This document shows, piece after piece, positions 95 through 4,043 of a stretch of DNA of 4,534 bases (position 1 is the first letter of the stretch; the number at the start of each line of letters is the position of its first letter). Under the pieces are notes generated by a model. That model was not told the DNA's origin, searched no databases, and saw only the letters and a program-made list of their open reading frames with translations. Source of the DNA: a virus (taxonomy: Duplodnaviria; Heunggongvirae; Uroviricota; Caudoviricetes); the IMG/VR virus record IMGVR_UViG_2778261058_000008, positions 1-4,534 of that record. One strand, given 5' to 3'. Position numbers and translations under genes: made by a program.

Positions 95-173
95 CCAGTT
101 AACATTACGCGTCCTGCAAGACGCTTAACATTAATCTGAGGCCCAATCTATGTCTCACAAATGTAGGTTAGCC
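95..173 (-). ncRNA. Candidate Sok-like antisense RNA (type I antitoxin); boundaries approximate
   Basis: Placed by analogy to hok/sok: antisense to the mok-like initiation region. Minus strand has weak promoter candidates (TTGCCT-17-TAACCT, or a TAAGAG -10 that is conserved with my recollection of R1) and a hairpin GCGTC-loop-GACGC (complement of 109-124) followed by a U-rich stretch. Start and end cannot be fixed from sequence alone. Confidence 0.3.
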
Positions 174-362
174 TCTTACGTGCCGAAAGGCAAGGAGAAG
201 CAGGCTATGAAGCAGCAAAAGGCGATGTTAATCGCCCTGATCGTCATCTGTTTAACCGTCATAGTGACGGCACTGGTAACGAGGAAAGACCTCTGCGAGG
301 TACGAATCCGAACCGGCCAGACGGAGGTCGCTGTCTTCGTAGACTACGAATCTAGAGAGTAA
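150..362 (+). CDS. mok-equivalent reading frame, here in frame with hok (70 codons, would give an N-terminally extended Hok)
   Basis: ATG at 150 with GAGG (138-141) 8 nt upstream. Flanking CTATGTCT and AGCCTCTTAC match the mok start region of R1 as I recall it. In R1 mok is offset +1 from hok; here the mok-ATG to hok-ATG distance is 57 nt, so the frames coincide. Confidence 0.3.
   Translation: MSHKCRLASYVPKGKEKQAMKQQKAMLIALIVICLTVIVTALVTRKDLCEVRIRTGQTEVAVFVDYESRE
207..362 (+). CDS. hokD: Hok/Gef-family type I toxin, 51 aa (small membrane peptide)
   Basis: Translation MKQQKAMLIALIVICLTVIVTALVTRKDLCEVRIRTGQTEVAVFVDYESRE: single hydrophobic helix, conserved LTRK..LCE.R motif of Hok proteins, near-identical over most of its length to HokD/RelF of E. 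coli K-12 as I recall it. SD AAGGAG (192-197) 9 nt before the ATG. Gene symbol is by similarity and position, not verified. Confidence 0.85.
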   Translation: MKQQKAMLIALIVICLTVIVTALVTRKDLCEVRIRTGQTEVAVFVDYESRE

Positions 363-528: not shown

Positions 529-801
529 ATGGCGCACAATACCAAATTACACAATTCTGATACCGTTCGTGCCAGCAGGCACGGGCGGCGCTCTCACGCA
601 TTCAAATATGACTGGTATCAGCACGATCCCTGCACTGAAGAACAGGCCGAATGGCTGATTCAGAACTACCGCAGACGTGGGTATGAGTTTAAGAAAGCCC
701 TCAACCTCGATTATCGTCACTGGATAATCTACGTCAGACTCCCTTATTCCGAACGCCCACCGCGTCCGTCCCGCACATTCCAGCAACGCATCTGGAGGTA
801 A
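529..801 (+). CDS. Hypothetical small phage protein, 90 aa, at the position Rem occupies in Qin
   Basis: ATG at 529 (weak SD GAGAAA); stop TAA 799-801 lies 1 nt before the GTG of the next gene, so the two look coupled. The longer track ORF from 403 would start inside the hok terminator and is not favoured. No recognisable motif; function unknown. Confidence 0.5.
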   Translation: MAHNTKLHNSDTVRASRHGRRSHAFKYDWYQHDPCTEEQAEWLIQNYRRRGYEFKKALNLDYRHWIIYVRLPYSERPPRPSRTFQQRIWR

Positions 802-802
802 C

Positions 803-1852
803 GTGCGGGTATTGCTTCGACCTGTTCCGGTACCGGAACTCGGGCTGGTGGTCCTTAAGCCTGGTCGTGAATCCATGCAGGTATTTCATAACCCTCGAGT
901 GCTGGTGGAACCGGAACCGAAAAGCATGCGCGGTCTGCCGTCCGGAGTCGTTCCTGCCATTCGCCAGCCGCTGGCGGAAGACAAAACATTGCTGCCGTTT
1001 TTCAGTAACGAACGGGTGATTCGTGCTGCTGGCGGCGCTGGTGCACTTTCTGACTGGCTGTTGCGTCATGTCAAATCCTGCCAGTGGCCTCATGGCGACT
1101 ATCACCACAGCGAAACCGTCATACATCGTTACGGTACCGGCGCGATGGTGTTGTGCTGGCACTGCGACAACCAGCTGCGTGACCAGACTTCCGAATCACT
1201 CGGGCAACTTGCTCATCAAAACCTGTCAGCATGGATGACTGACGTCATCCGTCACGCAATGAATGGCACACAGGAGCGGGAATTATCGCTGGCTGAATTA
1301 TCCTGGTGGGCGGTCTGCAATCAGGTAGCGGACGCATTACCGGAGGCAGTATTACGTCGTTCGCTGGGATTGCGTGCGGAAAAAATCCGCTCAATGTACC
1401 GTGAAAGCGACATCGTACCGGGAGAGCAGACCGCCACCAGCATACTGAAGCAGCGCACAAAAAATCTTGCGCCGTTGCCTCACGTCCACCAGCAACAGAA
1501 CGCACCACAGGAAAAGACGGTGGTCAGCATTGCCGTAGATCCGGAGTCTCCGGAATCTTTCATGAAGCGACCTAAACGTCGCCGTTGGGTAAATGAGAAA
1601 TACACGCGCTGGGTGAAGACACAGCCGTGTGCGTGTTGTGGCAAGCCAGCCGACGATCCCCATCACCTGATTGGTCATGGTCAGGGAGGGATGGGAACAA
1701 AAGCCCACGATATTTTCACGCTACCGCTGTGCCGGGAACATCACAACGAGCTTCATGCGGATCCGCTGGCGTTCGAAGAAAAGCATGGTTCCCAGGTTGA
1801 TTTAATTTTTCGTTTTCTTGATCACGCCTTTGCAACTGGCGTGCTTGGGTAA
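803..1852 (+). CDS. ydfU: DUF968-family phage protein, 349 aa, with a C-terminal Cys/His-rich nuclease-like motif
   Basis: GTG start at 803 preceded by GGAGG (794-798). Same length and gene position as YdfU of Qin in my recollection. C-terminus reads CACCGKPADDPHHLIGHG...LPLCREHHNELH (about 1630-1760), resembling a zinc-binding HNH-like signature. Confidence 0.8.
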   Translation: MRVLLRPVPVPELGLVVLKPGRESMQVFHNPRVLVEPEPKSMRGLPSGVVPAIRQPLAEDKTLLPFFSNERVIRAAGGAGALSDWLLRHVKSCQWPHGDYHHSETVIHRYGTGAMVLCWHCDNQLRDQTSESLGQLAHQNLSAWMTDVIRHAMNGTQERELSLAELSWWAVCNQVADALPEAVLRRSLGLRAEKIRSMYRESDIVPGEQTATSILKQRTKNLAPLPHVHQQQNAPQEKTVVSIAVDPESPESFMKRPKRRRWVNEKYTRWVKTQPCACCGKPADDPHHLIGHGQGGMGTKAHDIFTLPLCREHHNELHADPLAFEEKHGSQVDLIFRFLDHAFATGVLG

Positions 1853-1864
1853 AAGAGGTGACTG

Positions 1865-2224
1865 ATGCTCATAGATTTGGTTTTACCTTACCCGCCGACG
1901 GTGAACACTTACTGGCGACGCCGTGGCAGCACATATTTTATCTCGGAGGAGGGAAAGCGTTATCGTCGGGCTGTGGCGCTTATTGTTCGCCAGCAGCGGC
2001 TGAAATTAAGCCTGTCCGGAAGGCTGGCGATAAAGGTGATTGCAGAGCCACCGGATAAGCGTCGTCGCGACCTGGACAATATCCTGAAAGCACCACTGGA
2101 TGCGTTGACGCATGCGGGGTTGCTTATCGACGACGAGCAGTTTGATGAAATCAATATTGTGCGCGGTCAGGTCGTTCCTGGTGGTCGGCTGGGGATAAAA
2201 ATCACAGAGCTGGAGTGCGCATGA
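1865..2224 (+). CDS. rusA: RusA-family Holliday junction resolvase, 119 aa
   Basis: SD GAGGTG (1855-1860) then ATG 1865. Translation carries the RusA core PDKRRRDLDN...LIDDEQ; the three Asp at 69, 71 and 90 line up with the catalytic D70/D72/D91 of E. coli RusA. Confidence 0.9.
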   Translation: MLIDLVLPYPPTVNTYWRRRGSTYFISEEGKRYRRAVALIVRQQRLKLSLSGRLAIKVIAEPPDKRRRDLDNILKAPLDALTHAGLLIDDEQFDEINIVRGQVVPGGRLGIKITELECA

Positions 2225-2910
2225 ATAACCAGTATTTACAGTTTGTTCGTGAGCAGCTCATTATCGCCACCGCCGATTTGAGTGGGGCAACAAAAGGTCA
2301 GCTTGAAGCCTGGCAGGAGAATGCCATGTTCGATACAGGGCGTTACAGGCGTAAAAAAATCCGGTACCGCGATGAAGTGACCGGAAAAATGATCACGCGG
2401 GATAATCCACCAATCCCGGGGAAACAATCGCTGGCGAAGGGGACGTCAATTCCTCTGGTAAGTCAGGTTGAGTTTTCGACATCATCATGGCGACGGGCAG
2501 TTCTGTCTCTTGAAGAACATCATAAAACCTGGTTGTTGTGGTGTTACAGCGGGAGTATTTGCTGGGAGTATCAGGTCACCATAACCCGCTGGGCATGGGA
2601 AGAGTTTAAGGCTCATTCTGGCAACAGGAAAATTGCAGAGAAAACACGGGAGCGCCTGAAAAAATTAATCTGGCTGGCGGCACAGGATGTGAAGAGTGAG
2701 CTAGCTGGGCGTGAAACTTATGAATATCAGGAACTGGCATTACTGGCGGGAGTAACAACAAAAAACTGGTCCAAAACATTTACTGGTCACTGGGTTGCAA
2801 TGAAACACATTTTCCACCGGCTGGATAGTGAGGCTTTATTGTTTGTGATGAGAACACGCTCAGAACAAAAGACGGCATTTTCAAAGCAAAGTGTTGCAAA
2901 AGTAGATTAA
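2221..2910 (+). CDS. Late-gene antiterminator Q-like protein (Q82/Qin-type), 229 aa
   Basis: ATG 2221 overlaps the rusA stop (ATGA at 2221-2224) with GGAG 5 nt upstream; an in-frame GTG at 2215 is an alternative start. Gene lies directly after rusA, and its 3' end overlaps a promoter that is followed about 70 nt later by a terminator, the geometry of Q / PR' / tR'. Family call rests on context and general resemblance, not a search. Confidence 0.6.
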   Translation: MNNQYLQFVREQLIIATADLSGATKGQLEAWQENAMFDTGRYRRKKIRYRDEVTGKMITRDNPPIPGKQSLAKGTSIPLVSQVEFSTSSWRRAVLSLEEHHKTWLLWCYSGSICWEYQVTITRWAWEEFKAHSGNRKIAEKTRERLKKLIWLAAQDVKSELAGRETYEYQELALLAGVTTKNWSKTFTGHWVAMKHIFHRLDSEALLFVMRTRSEQKTAFSKQSVAKVD

Positions 2911-2928: not shown

Positions 2929-2999
2929 AAATCTGATATTTTGCCGATTTTGTACTCGATGGCAAAGTAAGCAAATCCCGCCGCCGAGCGGGTTTTTTT
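2929..2999 (+). ncRNA. Short terminated late-promoter transcript, about 70 nt (analogous to lambda 6S RNA / StxS)
   Basis: Runs from the predicted PR'-like start to the T-tract of the tR'-like terminator; no ORF with an SD inside. Confidence 0.3.
2977..2999 (+). terminator. tR'-like intrinsic terminator
   Basis: Stem CCCGC (2977-2981) / GCGGG (2988-2992), 6-nt loop, seven T (2993-2999). Confidence 0.75.
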
Positions 3000-3103: not shown

Positions 3104-3505
3104 ATGGTATTAAAGTATCAGCCGTCTGTTCGTTCTGTTTTAATGTGTGATTTTCGGGGAATGGTTGTTCCGGAAATAGTCAAGGTCAGGCCAGTGGTGG
3201 TCGTGTCCAGAAACAGGCACAACAATCAATTGGTAACAGTGGTACCAATAAGCACTACTGAACCGCTCCCTCGCAGAGATTGCCATCATGAGTTATCAGA
3301 AAACCCCATACCTGGTAATGAGCATATTACTTGCTGGGTAAAATGTGACATGTTGATGACGGTTTCATTGAGCCGACTGGATCGCATAAAAACCAGAACC
3401 TGGGAGGGACGAAATTATATTGTTCCTATGATTGCGGAAGATGAGTTTGAGAATATTAAACGGGCGGTATTGCACGGGATAGGGATGGCTTATCTGTATC
3501 GATAA
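3104..3505 (+). CDS. MazF/PemK/Kid-fold (CcdB/MazF superfamily) toxin-like protein, 133 aa, with no adjacent antitoxin ORF
   Basis: ATG 3104 with SD AAAGAGA (3094-3100). Translation SVLMCDFRGMVVPEIVKVRPVVVVSRNRHNNQLVTVVPISTTEP matches the MazF pattern (IWVDFDP...HRPAVVLS...CVPCTT) with the same 11-residue spacing between DF and RP; C-terminal region also aligns loosely. Could alternatively belong to an uncharacterised phage late-region family such as the YbcV/YdfO (DUF1398) type; I cannot tell them apart without a search. Confidence 0.6.
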   Translation: MVLKYQPSVRSVLMCDFRGMVVPEIVKVRPVVVVSRNRHNNQLVTVVPISTTEPLPRRDCHHELSENPIPGNEHITCWVKCDMLMTVSLSRLDRIKTRTWEGRNYIVPMIAEDEFENIKRAVLHGIGMAYLYR

Positions 3506-3700: not shown

Positions 3701-3723
3701 CCCGCCACTGAGCGGGTTTTTTT
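3701..3723 (+). terminator. Intrinsic terminator; near-identical second copy of the tR'-like terminator
   Basis: Stem CCCGC (3701-3705) / GCGGG (3712-3716), 6-nt loop, seven T (3717-3723). ATCCCGCC...GAGCGGGTTTTTTTGT is shared with 2974-3002; only two loop bases differ. Confidence 0.75.
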
Positions 3724-3845: not shown

Positions 3846-4043
3846 ATGCTAAAACAGCAGGATATGACCGAAACTGCCAGAGTAGTGTTTAATGAATTGA
3901 GCGTCACCGAACCGGCGACCGTCGGGGAAATTGCGCAGAACACGTACCTTTCACGCGAACGCTGCCAGTTAATACTGACTCAGCTTGTTATGGCAGGTCT
4001 GGCAGATTATCAGTTCGGTTGTTACAGACGCCTTTCGCAGTGA
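3846..4043 (+). CDS. Small 65-aa protein, probable winged-helix/HTH DNA-binding protein
   Basis: SD AAGGA (3834-3838) 7 nt before ATG 3846. Segment ATVGEIAQNTYLSRERCQLILTQLVMAGL has helix-turn-helix character. Function is inferred, not established. Confidence 0.6.
   Translation: MLKQQDMTETARVVFNELSVTEPATVGEIAQNTYLSRERCQLILTQLVMAGLADYQFGCYRRLSQ

Follow-up and report, generated by a model that had tools for sequence, protein, structure and literature searches.

A ydfU-type DUF968 gene of a lambda-like prophage and the predicted HNH nuclease domain of its product

The ydfU-type gene and its locus

The window, meaning here the whole 4,534-nucleotide stretch of viral (Caudoviricetes) DNA that was analysed, carries an intact ydfU-type gene of a lambda-like prophage, placed towards the end of the early-right ('nin') region (Table 1). 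The gene is an open reading frame (ORF) of 349 amino acids with a GTG start and a TAA stop; the GTG start is supported by the N-terminal sequence MRxLLxP..., which is kept in homologues down to 25-30% identity. Residues 160-346 of the product match the Pfam family DUF968 (PF06147) along profile positions 1-171 with 259.4 bits, against a gathering cut-off of 27.8, and PHROG 96 ('HNH endonuclease') matches the protein over its full length. Judged by these profile matches, the protein is a member of the DUF968 / YdfU family. The first-pass annotation had described it as a DUF968 protein of 349 amino acids bearing the Cys/His strings CACCGK, HHLIGHG and CREHHNELH. The ORF and the strings are indeed present (residues 276-281, 287-293 and 310-318, respectively; nucleotides 1628-1756), and the family match lies far beyond chance.

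The same annotation placed the gene directly before rusA with tight spacing on both sides, which is borne out by the sequence. The upstream ORF ends only 1 nt ahead of the GTG codon, which is preceded by a Shine-Dalgarno-like motif; this ORF found no match in Pfam or NCBIfam, and similarity to K-12 Rem is absent. On the downstream side, 12 nt separate the DUF968 stop codon from the ATG of rusA, with a GAGG at 1855-1858, and the two genes share one reading frame, interrupted by the TAA and four further codons. The stop codon of rusA and the start codon of Q in turn overlap as ATGA (2221-2224). YdfU, RusA and Q are probably produced from one read-through transcript with close-coupled translation.

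The product of the rusA gene matches PF05866 with 61.6 bits (gathering score 22.8) and is 42% identical to K-12 RusA. Allowing for an offset of +1, its residues D69, D71 and D90 correspond to D70, D72 and D91 of the K-12 protein, which we take to be the catalytic aspartates. The family profile and this alignment place it among the RusA resolvases. Accessory genes are also found around the DUF968 gene: hok/sok lies upstream, and a PemK/MazF-like toxin gene and a DNA methylase gene follow downstream.

Table 1. Features of the ydfU-type gene and its surroundings, in coordinates of the window
Feature	Position	Strand	Basis
Upstream ORF, function unassigned, ~90 aa from ATG at 529	529..801	+	phrog_1212 E=8.5e-38
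GGAGG, Shine-Dalgarno-like, 4 nt before the DUF968 GTG	794..798	+	sequence reading
ydfU-type gene (DUF968 family), intact	803..1852	+	PF06147 E=2.1e-77, phrog_96 E=9e-176, AlphaFold2
N-terminal module, residues 1-155, family-specific, outside Pfam DUF968	803..1267	+	phrog_11007 (residues 2-134), pLDDT 81-96
Second Cys/His metal site (putative), hairpin and helix, residues 93-125 (C93, H101, C118, C121; LCWHCDN)	1079..1177	+	conservation, AlphaFold2
Middle region (helical), residues 160-220, covered by the first part of the Pfam DUF968 model, LSxxELxWWA	1280..1462	+	Pfam start at 160, AlphaFold2, consensus
Linker, residues 221-245, poorly conserved	1463..1537	+	pLDDT 46-66 (232-240 below 50), gap-rich alignment
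HNH / His-Me finger domain (predicted), residues 246-349, lead-in VDPExPxxFMxRPK	1538..1849	+	domain-only model, Foldseek, HMMs
Beta-beta-alpha metal core (predicted), residues 276-318	1628..1756	+	AlphaFold2, conservation
rusA, Holliday-junction resolvase homologue, 119 aa	1865..2224	+	PF05866 E=1.4e-16, phrog_34 E=2e-56
Antitermination protein Q	2221..2910	+	PF06323 E=2e-92, phrog_304 E=1e-106
Terminator-like hairpin and T-run, 3' of Q	2977..2999	+	consensus scan

Domain architecture of the DUF968 protein

The AlphaFold2 model of the full-length protein has a mean pLDDT of 87.5, and the C-terminal domain modelled on its own reaches a pLDDT of 85.4 and a pTM of 0.73. The metal core of this domain is predicted to consist of two strands (residues 285-288 and 306-309) and a helix (311-319), with pLDDT values above 90 for most of these residues. 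H287 and H288 fall at the end of the first strand and H314 and H318 within the helix, a placement of the HNH type. When the domain was compared with the PDB by Foldseek, the top ~25 matches were all HNH nucleases (McrA, IscB, Cas5-HNH, Cap5, Gme, TagI and Cas9), none of them individually significant (E 0.05-1, with McrA best at 0.05; query-normalised TM-scores 0.36-0.47), and the non-catalytic LIM and RING fingers ranked below them; YbcO (3g27) and Ref were not among these PDB matches. HNH nucleases also make up the top eight PDB matches of the full-length model. In BFVD, seven matches to the domain have E<1e-3, all to short phage proteins (89-173 aa) that stand alone; one carries the name DUF968. 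At the sequence level the PDB yielded chance matches to C2H2 zinc fingers, or none at all, whether the query was the full-length protein, its C-terminal 95 residues or a 31-sequence profile.

Homologue diversity was taken from a search of representatives; the first homologue search had yielded no protein below 80% identity. Among 78 representatives, H287 is kept in 71, H288 in 72, D303 in 77, H314 in 69 and H318 in 68, so that these candidate catalytic residues are retained in 87-99%. The zinc site is less strictly conserved (C276 in 74, C279 in 61, C310 in 66; position 313 is His in 38 and Cys in 21), and HH...H...H persists in family members without the zinc cysteines. By analogy with known HNH sites, C276, C279, C310 and H313 would be structural zinc ligands, H288 the general base, and H287, H314 and H318 together with D303 the residues that hold the catalytic metal. 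Three members of the family (P0209, P0224 and P0265) have lost the His residues and kept the cysteines, and hence a part of the family may have a non-catalytic role.

Taken together, the model and the alignment predict an HNH / His-Me finger nuclease domain, braced by zinc, in the last ~100 residues of the protein, with catalytic residues that look intact. The first-pass annotation had likened the C-terminus to a metal-binding nuclease motif and proposed structure prediction as a check, with a purely non-catalytic zinc ribbon as the outcome that would count against it. The likeness is upheld by the beta-beta-alpha prediction, the HNH fold matches and the His/Asp conservation, and the predicted core is of the HNH type. 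A purely structural zinc ribbon is unlikely, given these fold matches and the retention of the catalytic residues even in the absence of the zinc cysteines. We found no published assay of its nuclease activity.

The remainder of the protein is less easily related to known folds. Foldseek comparison of the N-terminal module with PDB and BFVD gave no credible match. An Orf-like N-terminal domain was considered and rejected: hhalign of the N-terminal part with lambda Orf (NinB), DLP12 YbcN and NinG gave probabilities of at most 0.2% (residues 1-245 were used for NinB and YbcN), and Orf structures were absent among the Foldseek matches in the PDB. In the middle region, helices are predicted at residues 163-172, 181-188 and 211-219. 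This family-specific N-terminal part of ~240 residues most likely serves in the recognition of substrate or partner.

The N-terminal module contains a second Cys/His site, predicted to fold as two strands (105-110 and 113-118) followed by a helix (119-125). In 76 representatives C93 is kept in 73 and C118 in 75; position 101 is His in 48 and Cys in 26, and position 121 is Cys in 38 and His in 37. The family alignment contains no conserved HH dyad at this site, which is probably non-catalytic. Pairwise BLAST of the N-terminal against the C-terminal Cys/His region was not significant, and profile-profile comparison gave a collinear alignment (E=0.0055, probability 6.6%). An internal duplication that gave rise to both Cys/His sites is only a suggestion from this alignment. 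In some sequences the N-terminal module is fused to tail-fibre or tail-tip proteins, or DUF968 to Q or RusA; these fusions look like decay products of deletion or stop loss and were not counted as linkage.

Gene neighbours of DUF968

Related loci were collected with the C-domain alignment as query, which gave a sample of 80 species-level DUF968 loci. In this sample the Q gene lies directly downstream of DUF968 in 76 loci, across three Pfam Q families. In 43 of the 80 loci a rusA gene lies no more than 4 kb from DUF968, mostly upstream. In nine it immediately precedes DUF968 and overlaps it by 4 nt, in 28 an antirepressor gene stands between the two, and in a single locus of the 80 rusA is directly downstream, as in the window. 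Thirty-four DUF968 loci for which 2.5 kb or more of upstream sequence is available lack rusA, and several of them span the replication genes through to Q. In loci anchored on Q, rusA is found in 39 of 57 that contain DUF968 and in none of eight that do not (Fisher p=3e-4, a value that ignores shared ancestry and includes only these eight controls). The related loci often carry a DNA methylase gene a few genes upstream.

The constant neighbour of DUF968 is therefore Q and not RusA; DUF968 and rusA share a recombination gene neighbourhood in which RusA is frequent but optional. The first-pass annotation had suggested a functional DUF968/RusA unit, to be checked by co-occurrence. The association survives in part: proximity is frequent, also in the Q-anchored loci, and the short relative YbcO precedes a RusA gene of its own. 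The particular arrangement seen in the window is rare, an antirepressor gene often intervenes, and many loci do without rusA altogether.

Candidate functions and relation to known phage nucleases

The reading that we favour, at a probability of roughly 0.6, is that the gene is a ydfU orthologue encoding an HNH nuclease that acts on intermediates of phage recombination or replication, with RusA as an optional companion. The most likely job of the C-terminal HNH domain would be to nick or cut phage DNA intermediates, for example D-loops or branched DNA, and RusA may resolve junctions left after YdfU has cut. We infer the nuclease activity, its substrate and the cooperation with RusA from the predicted domain and the neighbourhood; a position in the nin region does not in itself prove a role in recombination.

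A closer tie between the two enzymes, in which DUF968 and RusA form an obligate pair, either as a physical complex or in a strict nick-then-resolve pathway, is improbable. The frequent proximity of the two genes and their 4-nt overlap in nine loci would suit such a pair, as would the presence of DUF968 in all 39 rusA-bearing Q-anchored loci and the absence of rusA from the eight DUF968-negative ones. The same holds for the position of YbcO before another RusA lineage (52 of 75 loci) and for Pfam architectures that are reported to fuse DUF968 to RusA (PMC4118853). Against this, order and spacing vary between loci, 34 loci with sufficient flanking sequence have no rusA, and in K-12 Qin ydfU is followed directly by Q; the Fisher test carries the limits of ancestry and control number given above, and the one fusion that was inspected (P0053) occurs only once, as an in-frame deletion within a prophage undergoing decay. 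An equally improbable reading would make the protein a non-catalytic zinc-finger DNA-binding or regulatory factor, acting for instance with Q or on late-gene expression, for which the HNH motif is a scaffold. Its near-invariant position before Q, the two Cys/His sites, of which the N-terminal one lacks a catalytic dyad, and the three members that keep cysteines and have lost His are all in line with this idea, and the annotation of one member of the DUF968/YbcO group reads 'phage transcriptional regulator' (PMC5714182). Yet the retention of H287, H288, D303, H314 and H318 even where the zinc cysteines are gone is the reverse of what a structural finger would show, the best fold matches are HNH nucleases and not LIM or RING fingers, and the occurrence of three different Q families beside DUF968 is better accounted for by the boundary of a mosaic module than by a specific pairing.

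If the domain is an active HNH nuclease, its target could also be host or competitor DNA, in host takeover, superinfection exclusion or counter-defence. This too we regard as unlikely. The catalytic residues that look intact would serve such a role as well, accessory genes lie around the locus, the upstream methylase genes of related loci would fit a modification-sensitive nuclease, and the PDB fold search ranks McrA first, albeit at E=0.05. The position of the gene is nonetheless a fixed, syntenic one in an early operon and not a variable accessory slot, and the closest families (HNHc_6, Ref-type and YbcO) are associated with recombination. PADLOC models searched with DUF968, RusA and the upstream ORF gave no match at E<=0.01, and membership of a known anti-phage defence system was rejected on this ground. 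Packaging HNH proteins of the HK97 gp74 class are small and adjoin the gene for the small terminase subunit. A function of this kind, in aid of terminase at cos cutting, shares with the window protein a phage origin and an HNH fold, and is very improbable for a protein of 349 aa with a large extra N-terminal module, encoded in the early operon before rusA and Q and away from the terminase genes.

The reading of YdfU as a recombination or replication nuclease can be extended, in a form that we offer as tentative and rather doubtful. The protein would be a two-module nuclease in which a degenerate, zinc-binding HNH copy within the N-terminal half (C93, H/C101, C118, C/H121) recognises branched DNA or RusA, RecA or SSB, the C-terminal HNH domain nicks, and the whole is a counterpart of Rap in many enterobacterial lambda-like phages. 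The His-Me finger group to which DUF968 belongs (group 7) might then, together with RusA, represent a nick-and-resolve module assembled in two lineages, YbcO-RusA and YdfU-RusA.

The nuclease assignment of DUF968 and its pairing with RusA have been published before as predictions (PMC5714182, PMC4118853), the His-Me assignment together with the RusA and Q neighbours having appeared in 2017. What is added here is incremental, namely the neighbourhood numbers and the putative second metal site of the N-terminal module, and does not amount to a new type of system. The ydfU gene is among the commonest uncharacterised prophage genes of E. coli, and the K-12 list of genes without a known function includes it; of 5426 complete E. 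coli genomes, 4825 match some part of the window. If YdfU proved to be a structure-specific nuclease in the place of Rap, this would close one functional gap in K-12 and clarify the recombination behind genome mosaicism of lambda-like phages, including Shiga-toxin phages.

The nearest known counterpart is YdfU of the cryptic prophage Qin of K-12 (b1560), which aligns with the window protein over 349 of 349 residues at 87% identity. The two loci share the order hok, small ORF, ydfU and Q. They differ in the insertion of rusA between ydfU and Q in the window, in the small upstream ORF, which is unrelated to Rem, and in Q, which belongs to another Pfam family (PF06323 in the window).

More distantly, DUF968 and DUF1364/YbcO have been placed together in His-Me finger group 7 (PMC5714182). 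YbcO (PF07102; PDB 3g27), known from prophage DLP12 and phage 82, is detectably homologous to the C-domain: hhalign gave a probability of 79% and E=1.6e-5 over 73 columns that cover CxxC..H..GTGTK..D..C..CH, and a shallower alignment gave 59% and E=9e-5. YbcO ORFs were among the matches of the C-domain HMM, with E-values from 2.5e-6 to 7e-4, and the Pfam YbcO model was reached, weakly, by two of 13 C-domain sequences. These comparisons support the placement of the DUF968 C-domain with YbcO in group 7. Like DUF968, YbcO adjoins rusA just before Q, lying upstream of it with a 4-nt overlap, an overlap that recurs in most of the 52 loci with YbcO directly 5' of its RusA; it consists of 96 aa, stands alone and lacks the ~240-residue N-terminal module.

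The closest named sequence families of the C-domain are HNHc_6 (PF16784), whose members are fused to Orf, and RecA_dep_nuc (PF16786), the family of P1 Ref. The first was matched by all 13 DUF968 members tried (best E=3.4e-7; 24.8 bits, below the gathering score of 26.6) and the second by nine of the 13 (E=0.009; 16.6 bits against 26.9), so that membership of the Ref family was rejected on score and DUF968 is to be seen as a relative of it. A Ref-type RecA-dependent nuclease model in BFVD also matched the C-domain (E=0.03, probability 1.00). DUF968 proteins of Gram-positive origin have been described as an Orf (NinB) family fused to HNH (PMC4118853).

The parallel with lambda Rap (NinG, PF05766) is one of position and proposed role. 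Rap is a structure-specific His-Me endonuclease that cleaves D-loops and Holliday junctions (PMC5714182), and its gene, like that of DUF968, lies near the nin end shortly before Q. The two proteins belong to different His-Me groups, Rap to group 24 and DUF968 to group 7, and membership of DUF968 in the NinG family was rejected for want of a Pfam match and of a significant hhalign result (probability 13% over 13 columns). Homologues of lambda NinG and NinB were not found in the DUF968 loci by single-sequence phmmer, a search of limited sensitivity, and this absence of NinG fits a replacement of Rap by DUF968 at the equivalent lambda position, where the DUF968 protein would take on the role of Rap.

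The DUF968 gene and its surroundings

The window comes from a lambda-like enterobacterial prophage and covers part of its early-right operon. Its DUF968 gene starts with GTG and encodes 349 aa; the product matches Pfam DUF968 (E=2.1e-77) and, end to end, PHROG 96, a family already labelled 'HNH endonuclease' by PHROGs. The Cys/His strings noted in the first-pass annotation lie at residues 276-281, 287-293 and 310-318, and the tight spacing it described on both sides was confirmed, with 1 nt between the upstream stop codon and the DUF968 start and 12 nt from the gene to the rusA ATG; rusA and Q overlap by ATGA. The gene product and its K-12 orthologue, YdfU, share 87% identity along the full sequence. 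The K-12 Qin prophage shares the order hok, small ORF, ydfU and Q with the window, but is without rusA. Across the whole window, the top match among complete E. coli genomes reaches 96% identity; the C-terminal domain (residues 246-349, the C-domain) is 99% identical to the one encoded on an Escherichia albertii contig.

Features of the window and their positions
Feature	Position (nt)	Strand	Basis or remark
hok/sok module	sok 37-212, hok ORF 150-362	+	Rfam sok RF01794, 121.7 bits; Pfam HOK_GEF
Small ORF, function unassigned	about 529-801	+	phrog_1212
DUF968 gene	803-1852	+	PF06147, PHROG 96
Second Cys/His site, four ligands (predicted)	1079-1177 (residues 93-125)	+	outside Pfam DUF968 model
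rusA	1865-2224	+	PF05866
Q antiterminator	2221-2910	+	PF06323
Terminator-like hairpin	2977-2999	+	consensus scan
PemK/MazF-like ORF	3104-3505	+	PF02452
Small winged-helix ORF	3846-4043	+	weak TrmB match
N6/N4 DNA methylase, start only	from 4197	+	PF01555

The hok/sok-type toxin-antisense module is complete, and after it comes a terminator-like hairpin (432-449; both within 37-457) that early transcripts must pass before DUF968, rusA and Q. The small ORF tightly coupled to the DUF968 start occupies the rem position of K-12 Qin, and comparison with K-12 Rem found the two unrelated. Near-identical terminator hairpins (2977-2992 and 3701-3716; CCCGCC..GAGCGGG then T7) bracket the PemK/MazF-like ORF, for which no obvious antitoxin gene was found within the window; the arrangement suggests an inserted accessory gene with a duplicated terminator. 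HicB antitoxin or IS elements stand at this position in related E. coli loci.

DUF968 and rusA share a reading frame, with TAA and four codons between them (1850-1864). Among database homologues, DUF968 is fused to RusA by in-frame deletion in P0053 and to Q by read-through in P0037, both rare and most likely products of prophage decay. In P0146, P0191, P0193 and P0251, the N-terminal ~150 residues are joined to tail-fibre or tail-tip (J) sequence, probably as chimeric ORFs arising from large deletions in cryptic prophages. Fusions of DUF968 to Erf, Rad52 and RusA have been reported (Curtis et al., 2014; PMC4118853).

Predicted fold and conservation of the two putative metal sites

An AlphaFold2 model of the full protein, built on an alignment of 31 sequences that share 25-86% identity with the query, was confident (mean pLDDT 87.5). 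The predicted C-domain core consists of a hairpin (285-288 and 306-309) and a helix (311-319), followed by two more helices, and a standalone model of residues 243-349 was concordant (pLDDT 85.4, pTM 0.73). In Foldseek searches of the PDB no single match was significant (best E=0.05); HNH nucleases, including McrA, IscB, Cas5-HNH, CBASS Cap5, the Gme nicking enzyme, TagI and Cas9, filled the top ~25 places, with non-catalytic LIM and RING fingers ranked below them. Predicted viral structures (BFVD) gave seven matches at E<1e-3, each restricted to the last ~90 residues and all of them small stand-alone phage proteins, one labelled DUF968, together with a Ref-type RecA-dependent nuclease at E=0.03. 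Pfam HNHc_6 and RecA_dep_nuc touched 13 and 9 of 13 C-domain sequences, respectively, below gathering score. Profile comparison with K-12 YbcO (DUF1364) gave 79% probability (E=1.6e-5) across nearly all of its 96 aa, and YbcO ORFs in unrelated loci were recovered by the C-domain HMM. DUF968, with YdfU named, and DUF1364/YbcO have been placed together in His-Me finger group 7 (Jablonska et al., 2017; PMC5714182), and a zinc-finger HNH motif of DUF968 has been described (Curtis et al., 2014).

Residue conservation offers the best means of telling a nuclease from a zinc ribbon. Among 78 representatives of 50% identity clusters, the putative catalytic or metal-binding residues are H287 (71/78), D303 (77/78), H314 (69/78) and H318 (68/78), with H288 (72/78) as candidate general base; such single-residue roles are given by analogy only. 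Putative zinc ligands are C276 (74/78), C279 (61/78), C310 (66/78) and position 313 (H in 38, C in 21), where the H/C exchange is as expected of a metal ligand. Several members without the cysteines (PCVVTG..., PLSPEAH) retain HH...H...H. The reverse pattern, zinc cysteines present but H287, H288, H314 and H318 gone, occurs in P0209, P0224 and P0265 (25-29% identical to the window protein), which, judged by sequence, are probably catalytically dead. The C-domain is thus probably a zinc-braced HNH/His-Me finger with predicted activity. The nuclease motif proposed in the first-pass annotation was correctly read, given the all-HNH fold ranking and the His/Asp conservation, and the predicted hairpin and helix favour a nuclease over a zinc ribbon only.

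The N-terminal 240 residues were also modelled confidently, but neither the PDB nor BFVD yielded a structure that matches them credibly; Pfam coverage begins only at residue 160. Gram-positive DUF968 proteins carry an Orf-like N-terminal domain (Curtis et al., 2014), in contrast to the window protein, for which hhalign against lambda NinB and YbcN (≤0.2% probability) ruled this out. The second site within this module is conserved across 76 representatives at C93 (73), C118 (75), position 101 (H 48, C 26) and position 121 (C 38, H 37); it is borne by a predicted hairpin (105-110, 113-118) and helix (119-125), with a conserved D122-N123 after the ligands and no HH dyad. Its profile comparison with the C-domain was collinear, pairing LCWHHDN with LCRxHHxE; at E=0.0055 and 6.6% probability the alignment is weak, and an ancient duplication within the protein is no more than a possibility.

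Q and RusA as neighbours

Gene neighbourhoods were counted in 80 loci, found with the C-domain as query in one-genome-per-species Enterobacterales contigs. A Q antiterminator lies directly downstream of DUF968 in 76, drawn from three Pfam families (PF06530, PF03589 and PF06323). Where DUF968 meets Q there seems to be a constant border between mosaic modules. The remaining downstream neighbours are an uncharacterised 204-aa protein (3/80) and, as in the window, rusA, in E. albertii only (1/80). Within 4 kb, rusA is found in 43 loci, in 42 of them upstream, where it directly adjoins DUF968 in nine, mostly with a 4-nt overlap, and in 28 is separated from it by a single ANT, KilA-N or Rha antirepressor gene. 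Accessory genes seem to insert preferentially at the rusA/DUF968 junction; the intervening types (ANT/Rha, KilA-N, ORF6N-ANT) lie 0.7-1.3 kb upstream of DUF968. In 34 loci whose upstream sequence extends for 2.5 kb or more, rusA is absent; several of these display the full run from replication genes through methylases to DUF968 and Q.

Among 65 Q-anchored viral contigs, DUF968 occurs with RusA in 39 and without it in 18, while eight have neither and none has RusA alone (Fisher's exact p=3e-4, from non-independent loci and a very small control group of 8). The window RusA is 42% identical to the K-12 type. YbcO occurs in 52 of 75 loci anchored on K-12 type RusA, ending 4 nt inside rusA in 48 of the 52; together with the DUF968-rusA loci, these make two gene lineages in which a His-Me nuclease of group 7 recurs close to RusA. 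Gene order and RusA presence are not fixed. The functional nuclease/resolvase unit suggested in the first-pass annotation is only partly supported and was overstated.

A candidate role for YdfU

Both the nuclease reading and the RusA pairing were already known as predictions: RusA and Q have been listed as DUF968 neighbours and a recombination role proposed (Jablonska et al., 2017). We found no experimental study of YdfU/DUF968 in the literature, and in 2024 a survey of functionally unassigned E. coli K-12 genes still listed YdfU as uncharacterised. Added here are the neighbourhood numbers, the near-invariant DUF968-Q adjacency, the case from residue conservation against a zinc finger with a structural role only, and the predicted second metal site in an uncharted N-terminal module.

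The family, predicted fold, conservation and context of YdfU are established. As to activity, substrate and partnership, we infer, with a probability of about 0.6, a nin-region HNH nuclease acting on recombination or replication intermediates. The weightiest alternative, a nuclease directed against host or competitor DNA, is unlikely, and PADLOC returned no match. Next in weight, and likewise improbable, is a non-catalytic regulator, against which the His/Asp conservation speaks. An obligate YdfU-RusA unit, third in weight, is doubtful: rusA is often close, but its order relative to DUF968 varies and it is frequently missing. A terminase helper comes last and is very improbable.

As a nin-region nuclease, YdfU would be made from the antiterminated early transcript, its translation closely coupled to that of rusA and Q, and would act on phage intermediates with RusA as a frequent but dispensable companion. 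Single-sequence phmmer detected no homologues of lambda NinG, NinB, NinH or NinI in any DUF968 locus; YdfU would hold the same nin-region position that Rap (NinG) holds in lambda.
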